Shown here in pieces: positions 1 through 57,502 of a stretch of DNA of 64,000 nucleotides. The translations under genes and the position numbers were made by a program. Where the stretch lies: NCBI GenBank assembly GCA_038087875.1, contig CM075990.1, forward strand, positions 16,432,001-16,496,000. Reading direction: 5' to 3'. This DNA comes from Malacoraja senta. Its lineage: Eukaryota. The number at the start of each line of letters is the position of its first letter. Position 1 is the stretch's first letter. The notes beneath the pieces are model-generated. The model searched no databases. It was not told where the DNA came from and saw only the letters and a program-made list of their open reading frames with translations.

Positions 1-216
1 AGTGCCCCCCCCCCCCCGGCCCATACACTTTAAGAAATCTCCACAGGGTGTCTCTATATACACTAGCTCACTCCAACAAATAATAAACATCTGCTTCCTA
101 TCTTCCTCTAACCCCAGCCCATCATTAAGTTTGTAACACCACAAATCTCACCTTGCATAAGACCAGGATACACTTGCACAGACTACAATTACAAAGAAAT
201 ACACATACTGCGTGTC

Positions 217-840
217 ATGTTTCCTTTCTACCCGCAACTGACACTATTTATTCTCCACCAAATTCACCTACTGCCTTGCTCTGCTGCCTCTAACATTTGC
301 TTTACAGCCCGACACAAAATCTGTCCACGAATTCCTAAGAATTCAAATAGCGACGTGATTGATCTCGCTATGAAACCTCTACACCCCAGCTCTACAGGAC
401 GTACACTTGCTCTCCATCCTCGCTGCTGAACTTCTGCTGCCAACTCTACATATCTAAACCTTTTCCTTTTCATAAGCCTTATCCACCAAGTTCTATAAAA
501 TACACTATCCGCTGACTAACTGACCATAACACTACATCAGGCCTCAAACTAATAGTAACAACAAGCTTTCCTCCTAAATCTACCCGCGTCTCCAAATCAT
601 TGGCACCCCATAACTGGCTTGACTCATACCTATATGCAAACTTCCCCCGTCCACCTTTCTCTCCCTCATGGACAAACTGCTCCTTCCGGACTTGTAATAG
701 AGCCCGCTCTATTACAAGTTCTCTTTTGGTTCAGAAGCGGTCAGGTAATTCCCCAGCTCCGAGCTTCGCTGTTCACCAATGTGACTGAAGACCTCCGGGC
801 TCAAAACGAAATCGCGGGCTCCAGTTGCACCACCGTTGTG
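217..840 (-). mobile_element. Degraded 3' part of an R2-group (Hero/NeSL-like) non-LTR retrotransposon with restriction-like endonuclease
   Basis: Minus strand reads SLRPDVVLWS...VYFIEL, then (frameshifted) KRKRFRYVELAAEVQQRGWRASVRPVELGCRGF...AAEQGS, the PD-(D/E)xK REL domain pattern of this group. Confidence 0.7.
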
Positions 841-1135
841 TTAATCATTGTTAATTCACCAGTAAATTCCTAGCACTTAGTAAGCGAATATGGCTCCGTA
901 AATCTCAGTGTCGACGTGTCACTATTACGATGCAAATGATGGACCGTTTATATTCAGCATGCCCATCTGCCCTGGACTTCAGTCCATACAGAGGTCCTTA
1001 CCAGAAATACATCTTACAGGTAAGAGTTGTTTCATTCACAATGGACTATTACATTGTCTTTGTTGGGCGCTGATTGCTAATATGTGTTATTGCTCTGCTT
1101 CCTCAGATCGTCACTTTCATCTGGCCTTCTAGAAC

Positions 1136-1267
1136 ATGAGTCTTCCTAGACTTTGGGGATGTTGGATTGTGTTGGTCCTGTTACCCAGGGCCCCGACTCT
1201 TGGCTGTGACGATTTAGGCCTATTTAACTGGATCACTAGAGAGATTCTGGACGATCTGTTTGCAATG
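1136..1267 (+). CDS. Type I interferon, coding exon 1 (signal peptide, Cys1, helix A)
   Basis: ATG at 1136; 132 nt encoding MSLPRLWGCWIVLVLLPRAPTLG-CDDLGLFNWITREILDDLFAM; phase-0 donor ATG|GTGACT at 1268. Hydrophobic leader followed by LG-CD, typical of type I IFN N-termini. Confidence 0.85.
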
Positions 1268-2015
1268 GTGACTTTAAAGTGACCTTGACCCATTCCTTTT
1301 TCAGATTTATGTGGGTTACCCCAGAGATCAATGCCTGGGCCTCAAAAACTTACAGCTAATATTGGCAACTTGGATGAAGGAGGGGATCAAGGGTGTTGTA
1401 GTCATGATATGGCAGAAAGGAAAGCAAGTTGTGAGAGGTCTGAAGAAGGATCTCAACCCAAAACATCACCTATTCCTTTTCTCCAGGGATGCTGCCTGAC
1501 TTGCTGGGTTACTCCAGATTTTTGTGTCTATCTTTGGTGTAATCCAACATCTGCAGTGCTTTCCTATACTTTATTAGGAGTGTACCTGAATGGAGGGATA
1601 TTGATAGGCTACCTGTGACATGAACTGGACAAATAGCATTAAATGTAGGCAGTGTGAGGTTATCTGCTCTGATATGAAGAAGAGAAATGCAGATGACTGG
1701 CCTGAGTCCTACTAGAGACAGCTGGTACTTTCAGCATCACAGTGCCAGTCCCAAGGTTGAACTTTCCTACTGTGGCCACTTCACTCCAAATGACTTTGAG
1801 GCCCCCTCATGTGTAGGGTATCCCATGGCGTGGAGTGGTTCACAGCCAAAGGAACTTGAGGCACCGTCCCCAATGACTGAACCCCATGAAACAGTCTGAA
1901 CTCTCTCGGCTGACTTAGACCGAGTCATATTAACACACAATTAACACATATTAACACATTTAACATTTAACACAATTAACACATATTAACACACCAATCT
2001 TAAAGAAACCTGGTC

Positions 2016-3485
2016 TTGATCCCTCCTCTCTCATTAACTAACGCCCCATCTCAAACCTCCCCTTTCTTTCAAAAACCCTGGAGCGTATCGTCGCGTCACA
2101 ACTTCATTCCCACCTCCTCGCGTATAACCTATTCGAACCCCTCCAATCTGGCTTTCGCCCCCTCCATAGCACAGAAACTGCTCTCCTCAAAGTCCTCAAT
2201 GACCTCCTTACCTCTGCTGACACTGGCTCCCTCAATATCCTCATCCTCCTCGACCTGAGTGCAGCCTTCGATACCGTCAACCACAACATCCTGCTCACCA
2301 GACTTAGGGACCTTGGCATTGAAGGTTCTGCACTCAGCCGTTCCTACCTTTCCAACCGATCCCACTTCATCTCTCTCCATAACCACACCTCTGCCACAGC
2401 CACTGTCACTCAAGGCGTTCCCCAAGGCTCCGTTCTTGGTCCCCTCCTCTTCATCATCTACATCCTCCCCCTTGGTCATATACTCCGTCACTTCAACCGG
2501 GACTTCCACTGCTATGCTGATGACACCCAGATCTATCTCAGCACCAAGTCCCCCCACCACCCCCCTCTCTCCCATATCAACTCCTGCCTATCAGCCATCA
2601 AATCTTGGATGCAACTCAACTTCCTTAAATTAAACAGTAGCAAAACAGAATTTCTCCTCATTGACTCCAAATCAACACTCACTAAAATTAACAACCCCTC
2701 TCACTATCGACGGCACCACTGTCTCCCCATCTCCTCAGGCACGCAACCTTGGCGTGATCTTTGACTCAACCCTCTCCCTTGAGCCTCACATCCGCCATGT
2801 TGTCAAAACATAATTTTTTCACCTCTGCAACATTGCAAAAATCAGATCCTCTCTCACACCCCCCGCTGCTGAAAGACTCATCCATGCCTTCATCTCCTCC
2901 CGACTGGACTACTGTAACTCTCTTCTTTTCGGAATCAATTCCAGCAGCATCAACCGACTCCAACTGGTCCAAAATGCAGCCGCTCGACTCATTACCCACA
3001 CCAAATCCTGGCACCACATCACCCCAGTTCTCAAAGAACTTCACTGGCTTCCCATTTCCCACCGGATCACCTACAAAATCCTGGTCCTCACCTACAAAGC
3101 CCTCAACAACCTCCCCCCCCCCCCATATCTCATTGACCTCCTCTCCCCCTACCAACCCTCACGGTCTCTCAGATCCACATCAGCTGGTCTCCTCTCCACA
3201 CCGAAATCAAACCTCTGCACTTTTGGAGGCAGAGCCTTCTCCAGGGCAGCTTCCAGGCTCTGGAATTCCCACCCACAACCGGTCGGAAATTCTGAGTCCC
3301 TCACCATCTTCCAGTCCCGCCTCAAGACCCATCTCTTCACCTCTGCATACCCTTAGTACCATGTTCCACTCCCTTCTGTCTTACTGCTCTATTTTGTTTT
3401 GTTTATTCCTGACTCTCAATTGTAAAGCGACTTTGAGTCCTGAAAAGCGCTATATAAATAAAATCTTTTATTACTATTATTATAT
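2016..3485 (+). mobile_element. 5'-truncated L2-clade LINE (RT and 3' end) in IFN intron 1
   Basis: QSGFRPLHSTETALLKV...LLDLSAAFDTV...GVPQGSVLGPLLF...YADDTQ...RLDYCN...LQLVQNAAARL, with frameshifts; ends in AATAAA plus (TAT)n. Confidence 0.9.
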
Positions 3486-4507
3486 GGCATTGAAATGTCC
3501 AAACAGCAGCATCTTTTTCTCACATTCAGCTGTGATGCCAATATACATCTGTAATTACTAAGCCTTTCACCTTGACCACTTCCGGTCTGCGTTGTAAGTA
3601 AATTTGCGCAAAAATGCTACCCTATATCGCTAGGATTTTTTCGCCAACTCCTCTGCTCCAAGACATCAAGTTTTGTTCCGATCGAAGAAATAATAAAAAA
3701 GTTATGAAGTGTTTCAGCTCGACGACCTCTCCCACAGCTGAGAAGGTTTGCAATGAAGCGAGACTCCAGCTGCAGAGAAAGGGGATATGATCAGAGAGTA
3801 GGGGCCGGACAGTAAATGCTGGAGTAACTCAGCGGGACAGGCAGCATCTCGGGAGAGAAGGAAAGGGTGATGTTTCGGGTCCAGACCTTTCTTCAGACTA
3901 AGAGTTAGGGGATAATGAAACTGATATGGAAGTGCAGATGCTGACCAAGGAAGTTTAGAATGGTTCATTGTTGGCTGAGGGAAAGGTGACAGCGAGGCAT
4001 ACAATCAGTAAAATTAATTAGGAGGACAGTGAAACTAGTTTGAGAACCAGGGCGGGACAGGATTGTGGAGGAGGCGTAGACAGAAGGAAAACTATTAAAG
4101 TCTGGCGCACTGGCACAGATAAAGTAAATGATCAATGTAGCGAGTGGGCGGGCGAGCCTCGCTGAAGAAGTGGGTAGATAGAGTAAGACGCCAGTCAGCT
4201 CCACTTCCCATTTGCCGACTGAACTGAAGGTTCAGCAGAGTGGTCACCCAAACTGTGTCTCGTTTCTCTACTGTAGCGGAGAGCACACGGTGTGTGGGAT
4301 ACGCGGTTAATAAACCGCATTCAGAGCTGTACCGCTTCACGTGGGATGAGAGGAGGGGAGGGGAGGGGGTAAAAGGACGGGTGCGTTCAAATAGTCAGTT
4401 GAAACCCATAAGGTTGCTCGAGAACAAACAATGTTGTTGGAGATAATGTTGCTGTGTGTGGGTGAATTGTGTGCTGGAGCCGGACTTGACCGCTTCCCCT
4501 GTTGTAG

Positions 4508-4597
4508 GGAGACGTCATGCCCCCGCGGTGCGCAGCTGAAAGGAGATCATTGAAAGTCAATAAATTGATCTTGTCCAAACTCACGGCGGGAGGACGG
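4508..4597 (+). CDS. Type I interferon, exon 2
   Basis: Acceptor cttcccctgttgtag|, 90 nt GDVMPPRCAAERRSLKVNKLILSKLTAGGR, donor CGG|GTGAGT. Phase 0 at both ends; contains the 'P..C' second cysteine. Confidence 0.85.
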
Positions 4598-5630
4598 GTG
4601 AGTGTGCATTTATAAGCGTCATTTAATGTATCTGCGAATGTTCCCAGGGACAATGAATGTACGGGTCGCATGTAAATTAAATCAGGGACGCGGTGTTTTA
4701 AGTATAATCACATTATTTTGCCAATTTTTAATAAATACCCACAACTACTGGGGTTTCAACGAATGCAGCAGTTCTGGGAAGAACTATTTCATATCATTTG
4801 ATTTATGTAGTTAGTCTGCTATGGTAGAACATGACACACAATGCTGGAGTATCTCAGTGGGTCAGGCAGCATCTCTGGACAAAAGGTAGATGGAGTAGAC
4901 GCCAATCAGCTGTCCAGAGCTGACTATTCTCCAGAGATGCTTCCCGACCCAGCATCTGCAGTTCTTTCCTACACAAAGTGAACCGTGAGTTGTGTAGGAA
5001 AGAACTGCAGATTCTGGTTTAAATTGAAGGTAGATCACAAAATGCTGGAGTAACTCAGCGGGACAGGCAGCATCTCTGGAGAGAAGGAATGGGTGACGTT
5101 TCGGGTCGATACCATTCTTCAGATAAAATCTGACCCGTCGGAAGAAGCTCTTCAAACTGATCTCACCGAAGTGTTGACGCCGGAAAGGTGCCAACAGAAA
5201 TGTTGATACAAGGTTCTCAAGAAAACTTTTGCAAACATGCATAATTTATTGATTATTCTCTAACCAAGTAAACCTTGCTTTCCCTCTCTCTCCGTCCCTC
5301 TCCCTTCCTAGATCTGCGACCACTTTGACTGTTCCCAGATTAGATTTTATCACTGTATGCTTCGTTGTCACCTTCTCCTAGCTAACAATGATCTTTTCTA
5401 CATTTTCCTTGAGCTTTATCCCCTTTGATGTCTCGTTTTCACACCTTACTCTTCCTTATCTTTGTATCTCCCTCTCCCCCGAGTCTCATTCTGAAGAAGG
5501 GTCTCGACCCGAAACGCCACCCATCCCTTCCATCCGGAGATGCTGCCTGGCCCGCTGAGTTACTCCAACTTTCTATCTTGGGAGTAAACGAGCACGTCGT
5601 TCCTACGTACATATCTGTATGCAGTTTCCT

Positions 5631-5768
5631 CTTCTTCTTGCGTATGGTGTGCACAGCCTAAAGTTGAAGGACAAATTGTTCTATTTGATCTTATTTGATT
5701 GGGCACGCCAGGTTGATTGCATTCGTTGAAACGGGGCGGACCACGTGAAGGTTGCAATCTCCCACCCC
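5631..5768 (-). mobile_element. ~140-bp SINE-like retroelement with 5' HDV-like ribozyme and (AAG)n tail, copy 1
   Basis: Highly similar to 61861-61998; imperfect TSD gcagtttcctc / gcagcttcttc; tail ...ACGCAAGAAGAAG. Confidence 0.8.
5715..5768 (-). ncRNA. Minimal HDV/CPEB3-like self-cleaving ribozyme (predicted)
   Basis: P1 GGGGUGG/CCGCCCC, P2 GAUUGCA/UGCAAUC, P3 ACC/GGU, L3 UUCACGU, J1/4 GU, vestigial P4, J4/2 CGAA (catalytic C equivalent at 5725). Confidence 0.75.
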
Positions 5769-5917
5769 GCAGCTTCTTCCACACTATCACACTATGGCTC
5801 TCTGCTCTATGACATCTATTGATCACTATTCGATTTGGAAATTAGTGTGATATTGTCCCGTCCCGGCCGTTCTCACGGGTCCATGGCCACACTGATGTCG
5901 TTCTGTGTTGTGTGCAG

Positions 5918-6156
5918 GACCCGGACATGCTCGGTGTTGTCTACCAAGTGGTGAGCCAATTCAACAGAATCTACCACATGGACCGGACCTTGGTCACATG
6001 GCCCCAGGACCCTATGGCGAGACTCGAGTATCAACTGGATGGGCAGAGCTCTCTTCTGGAAAAATGTGTGAGGGACACAGGTTCCGAGGCCCGGCCACGG
6101 AAAAGGCCACCATTCACAAGTACTTCAGGAGACTCGGCAAGTTTCTTAAACGGAAG
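5918..6156 (+). CDS. Type I interferon, exon 3 (1-nt frameshift at 6101-6104)
   Basis: Acceptor gttgtgtgcag|; DPDMLGVVYQVVSQFNRIYHMDRTLVTWPQDPMARLEYQLDGQSSLLEKCVRDTGSEARPRK, then in a shifted frame ATIHKYFRRLGKFLKRK; donor AAG|GTGAGA. The W-x21-C spacing and 'I.KYF.RL..FLK.K' helix match type I IFN. Length is 239 nt (240-1). Confidence 0.88.
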
Positions 6157-6262
6157 GTGAGACGGTTGAATCTTATCATCTAACGACCCGCGGACAATTA
6201 TTTCATTCAATCTAAATATATTCATTCTCTGATGCGTGATTCTGAACGTTTCTCTTTTGCAG

Positions 6263-6346
6263 AAATTCAGCGCCTGCGCCTGGGAAGTAATCCGCTACGA
6301 GCTCATTGATTGGTACCAACAGGTGATGCATGATAACAATGGATAA
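6263..6346 (+). CDS. Type I interferon, exon 4 (CAWE motif, stop)
   Basis: Acceptor tttctcttttgcag|, then KFSACAWEVIRYELIDWYQQVMHDNNG-TAA. S-x-CAWE-x-x-R is the type I IFN signature. Confidence 0.92.
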   Translation, partial: KFSACAWEVIRYELIDWYQQVMHDNNG

Positions 6347-6527
6347 TGTGCGAGCGCTGTCTGGTGCATTCAGAGCCTTATTTGGTGGAATGGGATGATT
6401 GGGGATCATTGTATACATTTTTTTAAATCAAGAATTGAAATTGTCCTTGTTTTAGTAATCAAGTTATACTGTTGTACTGTTGTAAAATGTTATGTAATAT
6501 GTTATAATGGAGCATGCAAAAACTGCA

Positions 6528-6533
6528 AATAAA
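6528..6533 (+). terminator. Probable polyadenylation signal of the interferon gene
   Basis: AATAAA about 180 nt after the stop codon in an AT-rich 3' UTR. Confidence 0.5.
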
Positions 6534-6649
6534 ATACTGTACGTTTTTGCAGTAAAGAAAACCTTTTGCACGAAAATTAACGAGTTATCTTAACCACCCC
6601 CAACTACTGCCCGCTGTCCCATTCACCTTCAGTTCCGTCAACACCATTT

Positions 6650-6821
6650 AGCCAGCGGTAGAGTTGCTGCCTGCCAGTGACCCGGGTTCGAGCCTGGGTA
6701 CGGGTGCTGTTTGTACGTTCCCTCGTGACCCATGTGGGTTTTCTCCGGGTGCTCCGGTTTCCTCCCACACTGCAAAGACGTAGGATAATTGGCTTGGTAT
6801 AATTGTAGATTGTCCCTAGTG
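6650..6821 (+). mobile_element. tRNA-derived SINE (HE1-like), truncated
   Basis: cagcggtagagttgctgcc...gggttcgagcc (A/B-box-like) and a core shared with many copies in the window. Confidence 0.7.
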
Positions 6822-7080
6822 CAGGCCCGTACGAAGCTTTTCAAAAAGGGGGGTGACAGGATTACAAAAAACTTATGTGAAGTGACCGGGGCCCTCGCGG
6901 CCGGGGTTTTAGATGATCTCTATTGCACTCTGAGCCTTATTCTGGAGCATTTTTGCACCAAATTTATGACCAATATTCAGAAATAATTTTGGTGGAGTCA
7001 AGATTAATAATTGCAGATCTGCCAAGTTTCACCGAGCATTTCCGTATTACGATGGCTAAAAATCAGTATTTTGTTAGGGA

Positions 7081-8020
7081 AGATTCAAGATTCAAGAGAG
7101 TTTATTGTCATGTGTCCCTGATAGGACAATGAAATTCTTGCTTTGCTTCAGCACAACAGAACATAGTAGACATGACTACAGAACAGTTCAGTGTGTCCAT
7201 ATAACATTGTATAAATATATACACACATGAATAAATAAACTGATGAAGTGCAAATAACAGATAATGGGCTATTAATGTTCAAAGATTTGTCCGAGCCAAG
7301 TTTAATAACCTGATGGCTGTGGGGAAGTAGCTATTACTGAACCTTGTCGTTGCAGTCTTCAGGCTCCTGTACCTTCTACCTGAAGGTAGCGGGGAGATGA
7401 GTGTGTGGCCAGGATGATGTGGGTCCTTGATGATGCTGCCAGCCTTTTTGAGGCAGCGATAGATCCCCTCGATGGAAGGGAGGTCAGAGCCGATGATGGA
7501 CTGGGCAGTGTTTACTACTTTTTGTAGTCTTTTCCTCTCCAGGGCGCTCAAGTTGCCGAACCAAGCAACGATGCAACCGGTCAGCATGTTCTCTACTGTG
7601 CACCTGTAGAAGTTAGAGAGAGTCCTGCTTGACAAACCGACTCTACGTAATCTTCTCAGGAAGTAGAGGCGCTGATGTGCTTGCTTAATAATAGCATCAG
7701 TGTTTTCGGACCAGGAAAGATCTTCAGAGATGTGCACGCCCTGGAATTTGAAGCTCTTGACCTTTCAACCATCGACCCGTTGATATAAGCAGGACTGTGG
7801 GTCCCCATCCTACTCCTTCCAAAGTCCACAATCAGTTCCTTGGTTTTGCTTGTGTTGAGGGCCAGGTTATTGTGCTGGCACCATATGGACAGTTGCTCGA
7901 TCTCTCTTCTATACTCTGACTCATCCCCATCAGTGATACGTCGCACAACAGTGGTGTCGTCAGCGAACTTGATGATGGAGTTCGCACTATGACCGGCTAC
8001 GCAGTCATGAGTATAGAGTG
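7081..8020 (-). mobile_element. Rex1/Babar-type LINE 3' fragment
   Basis: LYTHDC...IIKFADDTTVV...LNTSKTKELIVDF...KAHQRLYFLRRL-like...PSGRRYRS; 3' ATGACAATAAA and short tandem tail. Confidence 0.85.
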
Positions 8021-8039
8021 TTCCTCTCACAGACTTTGA

Positions 8040-8415
8040 CAACACTCTTGGCAGACCAGCCACTGCCATTTAGCCATAAATCACATTTTCCAGTTCCATT
8101 TTCCGAGAATGTAACTGTGCAAACCTAGTCACCACTTTGTCCAAGTCATGGGCAAAGTCATAGTGAATGTACATTAAGGCAAGTGCAGACAGCCTGTCAT
8201 TGCTCATGGAAGTCCTGGGTAGTGATGCAGGCGACGGACACTCGTGGCACGCCTGCATATATTGCCATTTAACCAGAATTCATGTTTTCCAGTTCCATTT
8301 TCCAAGAATGTAACTGCGCAAACCTAGTCACGACTTTGTCCAAGTTATGGGCAAAGTCATAGTGAATGTGGATTAAGCTGACTGCAGACAGCTGATTGCA
8401 TGGAAGTCCTGGTCT
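8040..8415 (-). mobile_element. hAT transposase C-terminal (dimerisation domain) remnant, tandemly duplicated
   Basis: RTSMSNDRLSALALMYIHYDFAHDLDKVVTRFAQLHSRKMEL at 8070-8230, with a second diverged copy at 8269-8410. Confidence 0.75.
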
Positions 8416-9009
8416 TTGCTTCTTCGTGGATGAGAAAACGTGTTTGTCCATGTGGCTGGATCAAAGTAAGATGCCGAGCGAGATCGCACCCACTGCAAGC
8501 ATGCCGCCCAAGGCCAGCGTCTCTCTACTGCTCAGGCTCATGACCAAAGGTCCCAGCTACCTCCGCAGTCAAATGGAGGGGGAAAGGCGGGGTCGGCAGA
8601 GTGCCGTGGTGAGACTGGCTGCTGACAAGGCCAAGTACTTGAAGAGCCAGATGGCGAGGGGGTGCAAAGTGCAGCCCAATGGTTTGGGCAGCTCTGCCCC
8701 CGTGGAAGGCAGCAGCAGCGGCAGCGGGGCCAGCAGCAACACAAAGACTTACCTGGCCTCCAGCTGAGCGGGCAGCTGGTGCTCCCGCCTGACATTGTGC
8801 ATCGCTCCAGCTCCAAGGGGCAGCTCAGGCCCGATTCGCTGGTCATGTACCTGCAGAAGTGCGAGTTCATGCGGGGAGCGGCGGCCACCAGCAGCGCCCG
8901 CAGTTTCAAGGGCAGTGGAAGTCTGGTCCTGCGGCTGCGGCCGGGGCGACAATCAGCAGGGGCTGGCAACGGGAGCAGCAACGTCGGAAGGGGGAGAATT
9001 AGCAGAGGG

Positions 9010-9212
9010 TACAGCACCCCAGGGTGCACAAGTAACCACACCAGCAGCACCCCAGGGAGAAACAGCAGCCTCGCCAGCAGCACCCCAGGGTGCATAAGTA
9101 ACTACACCAGCAGCACCCAAGGGTGCACAACTAACCACTCCAGCAGCACCCCAGGAAGCACCAGTCACCAAGCCAGCAGCATCCCAGGGTGCACAAGTAA
9201 CCACGCCAGCAG
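9010..9212 (+). repeat. 33-bp minisatellite (~6 units)
   Basis: Repeated CAGCACCCCAGGGTGCACAAGTAACCACACCAG variants; explains the STPG-repeat ORFs. Confidence 0.85.
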
Positions 9213-11086
9213 TTAACATAGAAAACATAGAAAATAGGTGCAGGAGTAGGCCATTCGGCCCTTCGACCATTCGATATGATCATGGCTGATCATCCAACTC
9301 AGTATCCCATCCCTGCCTTCTCTCCACGAGAATCTGCAACAGGTCATCCCAAGGAGCCGCTCAAGCTACGGAGCTCGCACTCCGACATCAGCAGCCACTT
9401 CTCCCGAGCCTGCTTGGGCTTGGACAGTATCTTCGAGCACTGCGGACTCGAGCCCGAGGTGATCGAGAACCTGGCCAGGGAGAAGTTTGCCGCCGACACT
9501 GCCTTCAAAAGCCATGCCCTCAAGTTTCGCAGAGTGAAAGGCCTGTCCCACTTGGGTGACATTTTCGGCGACAGCCTGAAAAGAAGTTCTCGCGTCGTGG
9601 TCGGGTCGTGACGTGGTGTGATGCGTAGTGACGCACGGTGACTCCCTGTCGCCCCTGGATTTTGGAATATTCAACTGAAATATCTCCTGACCAAGGAAGG
9701 TCAGCGCTCCTCGGACAACACTGCATCATCGCCCCGCTGCCTTGGCCGTCCATGTCTAAGTGCCGCCGCCAAAGGGGGAGGCAGTTGGGATCTCTTCGCC
9801 TTCGCCACCGCCTCCCCTCCGGAGTGGCACACCGCGACCACTATGGGGGCGGGCGGGGCCACTGGCATCGCTACTGCTGCTGTGCAAGGCCCGACATTCG
9901 CGAGGGGGGTGAGGTACCGGTGGGTGGGGGGGGGGGGCAAGGGACCGGCGGGGGGCAGCGGATGGCGTGGACCCAGCCGAAGTGGCGCCTAGTGTTGGGC
10001 CACGGCCGCTGCCAGCACTGTTCAGAGTCAGTCCTTCCCGCCCGGCGACGGGAGAATGATCTCCCCGGACCACCCGCCAGCAGCAGACCCGCTCCATGGC
10101 CACCAGGTTGACCGGCGGTGAGGCTCCGACGCCGCGGATGGAGGCGATGCACCATGCTGGGAGACACCGCAGCCCCGGGACCGGAGAAGCACGCACTCCT
10201 TTTTTCCCCAAATCATCCCGCGGGTCAGATTGGTAGTTGAACACCCCCGATAAAAAAAAAGCTTCCCTCTCCCGCAACGCAATATTTCACGGTCCCACTA
10301 ACCCAAACTAGGCCCGGGGCGTCGAGGCGATGCATTGAAAATGGCGGCGGCTAATTCCGCCCACTGCGCGCGCGCAGAGACGGAGTCATTTTATGTCGCT
10401 ACCGCGTCACCAGCTTCCCCCAACTGTGCAACTCGCAAATATTTTTTTTCTCTCAGGATTTGTTTTTATTCCGGAAAAAAAGGGGGGTGCGACCACACCC
10501 AACGCACCCCCCCCCCTTCAGACGGCCATGTGAGGTGGTCACAGAAGTGGGATCGAGTGGAATCTTAAAGGAATTTAAACACATGGACGAAAACTGTAAA
10601 TCAAACATGGGAGAAAATGGCAACCAATGACCAGAACAGACTAGCATACTAGGTGAGCAACAGTTGATATGGAAAGAGTATTATCAGAGGTTTCGAGAAG
10701 TTTAAGTTGGAAAACTACCATCTCCCGAAATAGATCTTGTGTCGGGAGCTTGCGGCAAAGCGGAAGGAAGATGCCTCCTCCACAGAAACATTTCAAAACA
10801 ACCTGAAGAGACGTCTTTGTGGGCAAGGAGTAATCCCAAGATTATGAAGCAAATGGTTCAGAACAAGGCTCACTGGCAGATCCTGACAAGATCAGTGTAA
10901 TACAGTTTCAAATGAAAGCAACAAAGATGTCTCTAGGCTTTATGTGAAAGGCACCAAAGGGCCACACTGTCAAGATTCACACCCTTAGTACAGCTAACTC
11001 TAAATCAGGGTTCAAACTTCAGAATTATGTGAGGAACCACAGATGACATTTGTGACAACGCCATCAACAACCAGTTTAAGAATAAG

Positions 11087-12123
11087 TAGGTATGTTACAA
11101 TACTTACCTTCAGCGGCGCTGCAATTCTGCCACTGGCCGTGTGCGCGATTTTGGCGCCTTTGAGGGGGGGGGCGGGGTTAAAACGCGGGTTTTTCCTACC
11201 TTGTCCTGAATTATATTTCGTTGGAGTGCAAGCTTTTGCTGAAGAATCGTTCCGACGGGCGTTTTGTGTATTTTTTATTTTTATTCGCCCGACAATTTCA
11301 GCGCTGGAATTATTTTAAAATCAGCTTCTAAAGCCGTCAACGGCAACAACGGGGACGGATTTCACGCACGGGACAGGTAAACGAAAGCAGTTTATTTTAT
11401 GTATAAAAGTGCTTCTTAAAGAGGCCTTTAATTCACATTTTAATTTGCGAAACGTTGATTTTTGTCCCCGAACGAACCGGCAGTATTTTTCATGCCGATA
11501 CGGGGTTAAATTCACCGCAAATGTAACGTTCCAATTGATCGCGTTCCAGAAAAACCCACTCGCAAGATGATTTAATGCCCATTAATTTACAGGTATTAAA
11601 CATTCAATTCCGTCCATTTGGCCTATAAATCCATGACAATGAGATTTAAAAATTATGTTATATTGTGAATTCTTGTGTGAATGTTATTTGGACACTTAGG
11701 CTATTTAAAAATGTTAATCTATTCTTAAGAAATTGATAGATGTTTAGATCTAGTAATTGAATTTTGTAATTAGCTACAATTAGGTAACTAACTAATTATA
11801 TGCTTTAATTTCATGTCATCTAAGTAAGATTGTTTCATATTTGTTTCAGAATGCTTCAATCTATAATAACTGAAAGTTTCTTTCAGTTCTCTTAATTTTT
11901 AAGAAAGTTATGGGCTTTTGACTGTCCTTGATCACAGCTTTTGTGTTAAGTCAATGGAAAAGCAATAGGGAACAAGATGCTAATTTCCGAGTATGAAAAT
12001 GGCCATAACTTTTTTAATACTGAAGATATGACAGTGGTGTCAAATTAAACATCTATTTATGCTTTATCTGATGGGATAAATTACAGACTTGATTTTTAAA
12101 ATCTCAAAATTGTAACATTGCTA
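11087..12123. mobile_element. Non-autonomous DNA transposon (~1.04 kb) with TIRs and TSD
   Basis: Ends TAGGTATGTTACAA ... TTGTAACATTGCTA (12/14 inverted match), flanked by direct repeat (A)GAATAAG at 11079-11086 and 12123-12130; no transposase ORF. Confidence 0.8.
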
Positions 12124-12570
12124 GAATAAGGAAGCTCGAAGGTAGTCATTCCAGAGATGTCTTATAGACGTTTTCTCTAATTCTGAGATCGTCCAATGTC
12201 ATTTTATGTTTCACTGCTTAAGATATGATTCAGCACACTAATCCACATTGCTCATAATGACCCAGACTGTATTGAAACTCATGTTATCTTACAGTCTCAT
12301 ATAATTAACAAAACTGATCAGCATAAAATATCAGCAACTGGGTTTAGGAAGGTTCAGTTACAACTTAATAGCTTAAATGTCAATAAGGATACTGTAAGGT
12401 GCCTCATTACATGGGTTTTCCCCAATATAAGTGAATTCTTCAGGTTTGTGTGAAACTAATTAATACAGCATTATATCAACACATCCCTCAAGTTACCTGA
12501 AATTTCTCAATTACAAATTCATTCAAGGAAATAGACTTTATTTACTCAGGATATCAACAACAAGTCTTAC

Positions 12571-12768
12571 CTTATGTACACTCTTTGGATTTTCAAGCCA
12601 GGCATAATACATTTCCTCAAGATAATTTGAATTACTTCCACTCAGGAAAGGTTCTGAAGTTCCAGGCATGCTGTAAAACCTATGCTGAAATACAGCTGCA
12701 TTATTCTGCGCAAATCTTTTGATAATCTGCGGTTTAAATTTTGCAACAAAAGTCGTCAGGCGAATCAT
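12571..12768 (-). CDS. OGDHL: 2-oxoglutarate dehydrogenase E1-like, first coding exon (mitochondrial transit peptide and N-terminal motif)
   Basis: [19 protein letters not shown]...[28 protein letters not shown] (66 codons); acceptor ttgatttattttag| at 12782; donor AAG|GTAAGA at 12570. The paralogue call rests on adjacency to PARG in the same orientation, as at human 10q11.23. Confidence 0.88.
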
Positions 12769-15784: not shown

Positions 15785-15984
15785 NNNNNNNNNNNNNNNN
15801 NNNNNNNNNNNNNNNNNNNNNNNNNNNNNNNNNNNNNNNNNNNNNNNNNNNNNNNNNNNNNNNNNNNNNNNNNNNNNNNNNNNNNNNNNNNNNNNNNNNN
15901 NNNNNNNNNNNNNNNNNNNNNNNNNNNNNNNNNNNNNNNNNNNNNNNNNNNNNNNNNNNNNNNNNNNNNNNNNNNNNNNNNNNN
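15785..15984. other. Assembly gap (200 N)
   Basis: Run of N. Confidence 1.
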
Positions 15985-46251: not shown

Positions 46252-46451
46252 NNNNNNNNNNNNNNNNNNNNNNNNNNNNNNNNNNNNNNNNNNNNNNNNN
46301 NNNNNNNNNNNNNNNNNNNNNNNNNNNNNNNNNNNNNNNNNNNNNNNNNNNNNNNNNNNNNNNNNNNNNNNNNNNNNNNNNNNNNNNNNNNNNNNNNNNN
46401 NNNNNNNNNNNNNNNNNNNNNNNNNNNNNNNNNNNNNNNNNNNNNNNNNNN
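46252..46451. other. Assembly gap (200 N)
   Basis: Run of N. Confidence 1.
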
Positions 46452-56036: not shown

Positions 56037-56147
<111 letters not shown>

Positions 56148-57502
56148 CTAGAAAACAGTTAAGAGCAAAGACAGAGGAAAATATTTAACCGGCAACATTA
56201 GCAAAGAAGAACATATGTTTTTAAACCGTTTTAATTTTGATAAGCCCAATGTAATGTTAAGAAAAATTCTGCAGTCTTTGTTTCGTATTTTGATAGTTTG
56301 CACATTTGTCGTAGATGTGGGGAGAACTTGGTTTGTAACATAGAGATTTCATTATATTATTAACAAGGACTGCTCTTTCTGCCTGCCACAGTGCAATCAA
56401 AATATTAATACATCGTTGGTGCTGGTTTCATTAGCCTTATATAGTGTTAATGTGCGGGGATCGCTGGTCGGCACGGACCCGGTGGGATGAAAGGGTCTGT
56501 TTCCGCGTTGTATCTCTAAACTAAACTACAGATGCCAACATTTGGCATACTTGGTTCCTGAATGGATTTTTATTCCAGAACCATTCATTTTCTTGTACTC
56601 TCAGGAAAGCACAGTAACTTTCTCATTTTACTTAGAGATTTTGTTGAGAGCATTGGGGATTATAGATTTTTGAGTAAACATTTACACAGCAGCACAGCTG
56701 CATTTCCAATGCTTGGAAGCACACTGGCTTTATGTGCAGATTTTACAACTCTCAAAGGGTTTCATCCTTACACTTCGTAAATTTGCTTTCTTTAGTTACA
56801 TTTTTAAATCCTCTTCTTGTAGTTTGTGATATTTTTCAACTTGTACTTCCACAACAACTTGGCTAATATATTGGCAATTCATCACCATGGGAGAAATAAC
56901 CCCAGCGTCCCAGTGGAAGGACATGGAGAAGAGTCACTGTCGGGAGATGCCTTTTTCACTTGCTTGCTGCATTATATATTCAGCATACAGGATGGACACA
57001 ACATACTGGAGTAACTCAGCGGGTCAGGCAGCTTCTCTGGAGAAAAGGAATAGGTGACGTTTCGGGTGGAAACCCTTCTTCAGACAGTCTTCAGGGGAGA
57101 GGGAAACTAGAGGTATTAAAAGGCTCAGAACAAATCACATGCTGGCACCAATGGCCAAGGAAAGATGGAGCCCACAATGGTCCATTGTTGGCTGTGGAAT
57201 AGGTGACAACGAAGGGATATATGGATGCAAACAGTGGAACTAACAAGATGACTAAGGTGGTGGAGGGGCAGAGAGAGAGATAATGCAAGGGTTACTTGAA
57301 ATGAGAGAAATCAATATTCATACTGCTGGGTTATATGCTGTCCAAGTGAAATATGAGGTGCTGTTCTTCCATTTGCATGTGGCTTCACTCTGACAGTGGA
57401 GGAGACCCAGGACAGAAAGGTCAGTATGGGAATGGGAGTTAAAATGTTTGGCAAACAAATGGATTGAAAAACCTGCTCTCCTTAGCATGTGGACATAATG
57501 TG

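Follow-up and report, generated by a model that had tools for sequence, protein, structure and literature searches.

How did a type I interferon (IFN) gene come to lie inside an intron of OGDHL in the skate Malacoraja senta? Here, we analyzed a window of 64,000 nucleotides of this species (assembly GCA_038087875.1, contig CM075990.1, referred to as C14), which spans C14:16432001-16496000. Positions given below without a prefix are counted from the first nucleotide of the window. We found that the IFN DNA lies between two sister copies of a DNA transposon, and that the whole block is flanked by a perfect TGAGG duplication, an arrangement that is new. The history we favor, with somewhat more confidence than an even chance would carry, is that a 33.9-kb macrotransposon jumped as one unit from an IFN cluster on another chromosome (C10) into the OGDHL intron, and that the gene is now probably a pseudogene.

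A type I interferon gene antisense to OGDHL

The gene and its host occupy the following positions.

1136..1267, + strand: IFN coding exon 1 (leader and first helix; 132 nt; aligned with homologues starting at residue 1)
4508..4597, + strand: IFN coding exon 2 (with Cys52; 90 nt)
5918..6156, + strand: IFN coding exon 3 (teleost exons 3 and 4 in one; 239 nt against 240 in paralogs, one base missing at about 6104-6106)
6263..6346, + strand: IFN coding exon 4 (CAWE motif and stop; 84 nt including the stop)
12571..12768, - strand: OGDHL first coding exon (residues 1-66; GT donor next to it; PF16078 match)
1..12570, - strand: in-window part of the 41,117-bp OGDHL host intron, which ends at the AG before the exon that begins with residue 67

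The window gene is a type I interferon with four exons. All of its splice junctions are GT..AG and in phase 0, as a preliminary description of this DNA had proposed, and an AATAAA lies past exon 4 at 6528. When an X is placed at the exon 3 break, the protein has 181 aa, with cysteines at 24, 52, 124 and 159, a further Cys9 in the leader, and the CAWE motif. The preliminary description had reached the same length and the same four mature-chain cysteines by correcting one base. The length holds for the X-containing reading, and the missing base is probably no error, as a C stands there in 4/4 paralogs.

In the Pfam search, exon 3 (E 4.5e-4) and exon 4 (E 5.8e-3) matched PF00143 only, each below the 26.8-bit whole-protein cut-off, and exon 1, exon 2 and the tail of exon 3 had no match (2/5 IFN pieces matched). 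The X-containing protein matched a profile of 38 shark and ray interferons with an E value of 5e-58; these 38 are the members of 170-200 aa among 53 IFN protein matches. Furthermore, a profile built from ten exon-3 sequences ranked type I interferon structures first. The interferon identity in the preliminary description was thus borne out. The leader is conserved and alignable with homologues from residue 1, and from this alignment it is a putative signal peptide. Among 163 proteins compared, the closest reach at most 58% identity over 100 aa, with 48.6% over 175 aa to protein P0009. A protein search with the window exon 3 alone returned four candidates, none of which was scored, and carries little weight.

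The four-exon structure is already known for cartilaginous fish and is not new. In the available text, Secombes and Zou (PMC5332411) describe the type I IFN genes of cartilaginous fish as four-exon genes that have lost intron 3 and lie beside GH and CD79. The exon structure of the skate gene is therefore ordinary and not the surprise it was first taken for, and its exon 3 does correspond to teleost exons 3 and 4 fused. The window gene shares with the GH/CD79B-cluster genes, as far as the text of PMC5332411 and PMC6640115 goes, four coding exons, the loss of intron 3, phase 0, four mature cysteines and CAWE. Unlike them, it is found in OGDHL on a different scaffold, its C-terminus is shorter, its stem branch in the tree is long, and its coding sequence is frameshifted.

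In the assembly, the IFN gene is antisense to OGDHL and nested in its intron. The preliminary description had proposed this nesting, beside PARG. We found the next OGDHL coding exon (SWDTFF...IRAYQ, from residue 67) at C14:16403453-16403280, 28.5 kb to the left of the window. The intron between codons 66 and 67 has its GT and AG in place and contains no N throughout. At the first OGDHL exon, identity to the OGDH-like protein of Amblyraja radiata is 98%, and 1000/1000 residues of Amblyraja OGDHL map in order onto C14. PARG-family exons lie upstream of OGDHL on the same strand, and a choline/carnitine acyltransferase gene lies downstream and faces it. The gene order on C14 is thus CHAT(+), OGDHL(-), PARG(-), which is also the order of the human locus. 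The window IFN sits in this CHAT-OGDHL-PARG region and not in GH/CD79B linkage.

A block of DNA colinear with the C10 interferon cluster between two transposon copies

The captured DNA and the right end of the block lie in the window as follows.

1..6821, + strand: in-window part of the captured interferon-cluster DNA, colinear with C10
1931..3481, + strand: long interspersed element (LINE) fragment inside IFN intron 1, missing from the two closest C10 paralogs
6822..10530, + strand: complete non-autonomous DNA transposon copy with imperfect 15-bp terminal repeats and FAM110-like cargo
10531..10535, + strand: target-site duplication TGAGG on the right side (left counterpart at C14:16408620-16408624)

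A genome search with exon 3 yielded 28 scored candidates, and the 24 matches were the window gene and 23 copies at C10:27.50-27.99 Mb. A GH-family exon lies near these copies at 27.31 Mb and a sodium-channel gene at 26.93 Mb, and we therefore regard C10 as the canonical cluster. The captured DNA is 23.8 kb long (C14:16415014-16438821) and colinear with C10:27957759-27994943, relative to which it carries a 10.5-kb internal deletion at C14:16419277/16419278. It starts mid-exon in a degenerate IFN exon 3-4 pseudogene piece (C14:16415014-16415264) and ends in a short interspersed element (SINE) downstream of the gene. A 5' breakpoint at C14:16419278 was considered and rejected, because the wider C10 comparison shows the internal deletion there and the true start at C14:16415014. 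Origin as a retrocopy was also rejected, since three introns and kilobases of flanking DNA are retained.

The noncoding part of the captured DNA differs from C10 at 793 of 15,422 sites (5.1%). The C10 gene at the corresponding place (27990900-27994359) keeps its frame open over 179 aa. In the tree, the window gene is sister to C10:27990900 (support 100/100), then joins C10:27842046 (100/99), and falls within the skate clade (97/96) on a long stem branch (0.59). The tree contains 76 rows, namely the window gene, 19 C10 models, 43/53 IFN matches plus P0068, and 12/65 further rows, with fused or partial matches excluded. By these sequence comparisons, the window IFN is a young offshoot of the GH-linked C10 cluster. 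Hence the idea of a separate ancestral locus distinct from the GH-linked one does not hold, and the phylogeny proposed as a check places the gene among chondrichthyan IFN1s of skates. The further IFN copies that the preliminary description had suggested looking for in adjacent DNA were not there: 184 kb of C14 contains no other intact copy, and the sole extra is the degenerate piece near C14:16415014.

The annotated proteins of three other skates agree with a recent arrival. All 41 of their listed IFN proteins (11, 13 and 17, with 15/17 members of one cluster listed) are on contigs other than the OGDHL contig, and this absence among listed proteins is consistent with a young insertion.

The left end of the block is formed by a sister element at C14:16408625-16415013. 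Its 3' part is missing, and it breaks off at C14:16415013 in a G-run that joins it to the IFN pseudogene piece. On the right side, position 6821 is the last with C10 homology, and the complete element begins at 6822, within a SINE that is continuous in C10. The junction has only 1 bp of shared sequence. Such an exact junction at the internal element end points to transposase action on C10 DNA. TGAGG stands on both outer sides of the block, for which the chance is about 1 in 1000, and 5-bp target duplications were found in 8/8 other family copies with both ends compared. The block measures 33,906 bp and makes up 82% of the OGDHL intron, which without it would be 7.2 kb. Genome searches found no second copy of the block. 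The stretches of the OGDHL intron compared from beyond the block gave no match of 100 nt or longer to the C10 DNA examined, which speaks for the transfer.

The two elements are mutual best matches, with 97% identity, whereas none of the other copies among the 40 scored of 1597 candidates exceeds 84% across the whole 5' end. They differ at 97 of 2954 sites (3.3%), plus several insertions. At non-CpG sites, the element pair diverges by 2.5% versus 4.2% between the captured DNA and C10 (p 1.6e-5).

The terminal repeats of the element are 15 bp long, with 11/15 matching. FAM110_N and FAM110_C pieces lie at 8465-8764 and 9366-9608 (+) and also occur in other copies; the family with these pieces is a multicopy Pack-type element in its own right. 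A 48-aa remnant in the element has at least 150 genome matches, and we take it to resemble a hAT C-terminus. According to the available text of PMC9004415 and PMC12730594, hAT5 elements are defined by 5-bp target duplications and are known from fish; the skate element shares with them these duplications and short terminal repeats. No transposase was identified, and hAT5 is therefore a best guess for the family. An 80%-identical family copy at C10:27845575 breaks exon 4 of the C10:27842046 IFN, whose frame reads into the element, and so the family did insert in the cluster.

Several further features of these regions were observed. A 1-kb element with apparent terminal inverted repeats lies at 11087-12123, and a 90%-alike copy of it lies in the left transposon (C14:16412501-16413543). 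The captured DNA contains a piece of a long terminal repeat element with a gag-like frame and zinc knuckle (L012:7974-8645), also present on C10. The IFN cluster carries large tandem duplications with several pseudogenes at C10:27871987-27908117 and 27957759-27986101. Among the skate IFN models, P0011, P0013 and P0047 (one from a Logan contig) have another exon spliced to exon 2 and no signal peptide. Salmonids have intracellular IFN isoforms, and these models may be isoforms of that kind. In Hypanus sabinus, IFN P0046 lies on a 69.7-Mb contig and the other IFNs on a 192.5-Mb contig, so that P0046 is possibly another dispersed IFN in a ray.

Candidate histories of the block

We propose that a tandem duplication in the C10 cluster produced the donor, which would have diverged from the nearest surviving paralog under positive selection. 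One element would have landed upstream, and a daughter copy would have hopped into the SINE just downstream of the IFN gene. The transposase would then have used the two outer ends, so that everything between them moved into the 7.2-kb OGDHL intron. Deletions and LINE insertions would have followed, and a one-base loss in exon 3 would have removed the last cysteine and CAWE. OGDHL would splice across the block, because its frame and splice sites are intact. A single jump removes the donor, and the nearest C10 copy is therefore expected to be older than the element pair. We infer that a local hop bracketing a C10 tandem duplicate, followed by one jump by the outer ends, is the simplest history.

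The block looks like a maize-type macrotransposon in a vertebrate. As described in the available parts of PMC9910405 and PMC4270019, maize Ac/Ds macrotransposons and composite insertions likewise have tens of kilobases of host DNA between outer ends, an outer target duplication and internal microhomology. In maize, excision is documented for an Ac macrotransposon of 28 kb and reinsertion for one of 10.3 kb (PMC9910405, same parts). The maize cases measure 14-28 kb versus 33.9 kb for the skate block. Unlike them, the skate block is a natural vertebrate case from one genome, is interchromosomal, has a 5-bp and not an 8-bp duplication, and is known here from sequence alone.

Some results count against this transfer in one jump. 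In the C10 DNA examined (about 360 kb of the 520-kb cluster region), we found neither an excision scar nor an element with 97% identity. A Pfam search with the 48-aa remnant gave no match, and no transposase was identified. The outer target duplication would also arise if a resident element received the IFN DNA later. The original insertion site of the left element is uncheckable, because its 3' end is lost. The examined C10 DNA also holds no second long copy of the parent's 6.9-kb downstream flank.

The order of events could also be reversed. An element would then have been in the OGDHL intron first, one of its 5' ends would have attacked the C10 cluster during replication by alternative transposition, and repair that linked C10 DNA with the broken sister copy at short microhomology would have left a composite insertion in place. 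This sequence of events accounts for the TGAGG on both outer sides of the block, for the precise joint at 6822, and for a left copy that is truncated and ends in G-run microhomology. It has parallels in maize composite insertions of 14-24 kb, whose internal joints show 3-4 bp of microhomology (PMC4270019, available text), and in animal Pack-TIR (terminal inverted repeat) elements, most of which form by capture into a resident element (PMC8277862, available text). However, for in-place capture the C10 donor would have to match the element pair in youth, which differs by 2.5% at non-CpG sites, and the nearest C10 DNA stands at 4.2% (p 1.6e-5). Genome searches found no closer donor, so it must have been lost or be hidden in the assembly gap that begins at C10:28001803, and plain gap-filling is not expected to return exactly at the first base of the element. 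We consider in-place capture unlikely, if still worth serious attention.

The same element-gene-element layout, with the target duplication of a resident copy outside, would result if a circle had looped out by recombination between two C10 elements and had integrated homologously into a third copy in the OGDHL intron. But this requires close copies on two chromosomes, and neither C10 nor the best-scored copies from other places yielded one near 97%. Such a circle is quite improbable.

Misassembly, in which a C10 cluster unit was threaded into the OGDHL intron via repeat copies, appears very unlikely. The assembly consists of 6182 contigs, and a gap (C10:28001803-28002002) lies 7 kb downstream of the nearest paralog. 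The 41/41 listed IFN proteins off the OGDHL contig in three skates would agree with an assembly error, and they fit a young or unannotated insertion as well. Against it, the intron has no gap, and the elements, set apart from each other by 3.3% divergence and several insertions, are short compared with long reads. The captured DNA is also 5% from any examined C10 sequence and is therefore not a misplaced allele of those copies. Finally, an ancient second type I IFN locus, such as the elephant-shark scaffold-86 locus that groups with amniote interferons (a second locus is reported in the available text of PMC6640115), is refuted for practical purposes by the 5% noncoding divergence from the C10 paralog and by the nesting among skate C10 genes.

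A single jump of the block remains our preferred history. Animal Pack-TIRs, including Ssk-FB4, share with the skate block a terminal-repeat element around a duplicated gene, breakpoint microhomology and positive selection on the cargo (PMC8277862, available text). Unlike them, the skate block carries 23.8 kb of cargo, comprising a whole intron-containing gene and its upstream region, and has two element copies instead of one split copy. In that text, the survey gives a median cargo of 224 bp and a size limit of 5 kb, with 10 kb tried in human, and the skate block appears far larger than the elements surveyed. The diving-duck IFN-CL and tortoise copies (PMC13176653, available text) are also type I IFNs that reached a non-canonical chromosome together with flanking DNA, which in ducks amounts to about 7 kb. 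Unlike the skate gene, they are intronless and are described by their flanking genes, no transposon boundary being reported in that text, and IFN-CL is intact and functional. Our literature search, in which subscription journals were thinly covered, turned up neither an interferon in OGDHL nor a fish interferon moved by a transposon, and the available part of PMC12232857 has nothing on an IFN locus in an OGDHL intron.

State of the copy in the OGDHL intron and its significance

As assembled, exon 3 carries a 1-nt deletion, and the resulting frameshift leaves a product of 162 aa from which Cys159 and CAWE are lost. The position of the missing base is occupied by a C in the 4/4 paralogs compared and does not belong to the run of A. 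Neutral expectation is about 1.1 frameshifts since the element pair split, with a probability of 0.65 for at least one. The frameshift is likely to be real, because the paralogs have a C at this position and because neutral decay predicts one frameshift. The OGDHL exons contain no frameshift. The IFN copy is thus probably a recently broken pseudogene.

Selection on the gene was assessed against the C10 paralog. Over 146 unambiguous mature codons (codons 26-36 were left out because of an alignment gap), the replacement rate dN is 0.185 and the silent rate dS is 0.049, a ratio of 3.75 (Fisher p 0.003); the ratio in the leader is 0.70. When changes were assigned by four outgroups, the window lineage had 19 replacement and 2 silent changes and the paralog 22 and 1, with 4 ambiguous. 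The replacement excess persists after CpG correction: 28 of 239 non-CpG replacement sites changed versus 10.1 expected, and 1 of 39 fourfold sites. About 40% of the time of the window lineage predates the element pair, and selection may therefore be older than the move.

The upstream region has its own features.

700..1135, + strand: conserved upstream region, found at only three places in the genome

A 331-nt stretch of it was found in the genome search only at the window gene, C10:27990900 and C10:27842046. It has an octamer at 930 and a TATA-like box at 947. A GT..AG stretch at 1021-1107, just before the start codon, is a possible 5' untranslated region intron; the C10 paralog has a 320-bp insertion there. 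No IRF or NF-kB consensus was found in 600-1135, and in this the window gene is unlike 4/4 other cluster paralogs checked, all of which have such a consensus upstream.

The competing view of the gene is that it is intact, positively selected and working inside OGDHL from an atypical octamer promoter, under any model of transfer, and that the missing base reflects an error of the assembly or a single allele. The exon 3 break comes after a run of four A, which speaks for this view, but the paralogs carry a C and not an extra A at this position. In a listing of sequencing runs for 4300-6600, no RNA run appeared and the highest share was 0.32, which is evidence for neither view. The gene retains its four cysteines, CAWE and every splice site and has no stop codon in frame. 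Conservation is also seen upstream, with 10 differences in 425 (p 0.003), and the upstream 300 nt are the best conserved of 100 windows, with 4 differences versus 15.5 expected (corrected p about 0.02). The dN/dS ratio is well above 1 on the window lineage, where the 19 replacements compare with 13.3 predicted by neutrality after the move (likelihood ratio 2.4). These points tell against decay, and a relocated duck IFN-CL is functional (PMC13176653, available text). Weighed against them are the age of the lineage, 40% of it older than the element pair, so that selection may precede the move, and the good chance that neutral decay has produced one or more frameshifts since the pair split. With a likelihood ratio of 2.4, support for function at the new site is weak, and we rate an intact, working gene as possible but doubtful. 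The fuller version is improbable. It holds that a 34-kb macrotransposon moved a whole intron-containing IFN between chromosomes, that the copy would still work in OGDHL, positively selected and driven by a promoter without the usual IRF and NF-kB sites, and that the frameshift would be an error or a polymorphism. Four-cysteine fish interferons are secreted and signal through IFNAR-type receptors, and the window IFN, while intact, would have acted in the same way.

Some further features lie in the window, and others concern OGDHL and its paralog.

56040-56156, - strand: PARG-family exon

Two 200-N gaps (15785-15984 and 46252-46451) lie between OGDHL exon 1 and PARG, and the window contains no tRNA genes. 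A second OGDH paralog lies at C15:12617642-12645089, with a PARG-family neighbour there too, facing the paralog. On C14, 16386461-16386520 (-) is a partial duplicate of the end of an OGDHL exon (residues 472-491), with 18/20 residues alike.

The interest of the skate IFN lies in the route to its location, its exon structure being ordinary. When an interferon gene turns up at a new locus, retrotransposition is the usual explanation, if one is offered at all. In the skate, the two block ends survive together with the target duplication, and the source cluster and relative timing can still be read, so that cut-and-paste seeding of a vertebrate immune-gene locus becomes directly testable. The cargo is about 100 times the median of animal Pack-TIRs and exceeds the 5-kb limit given in the available text of the PMC8277862 survey, in which it would be missed. 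If the frameshift is real, the locus would be a clear case of interferon birth and death in progress.

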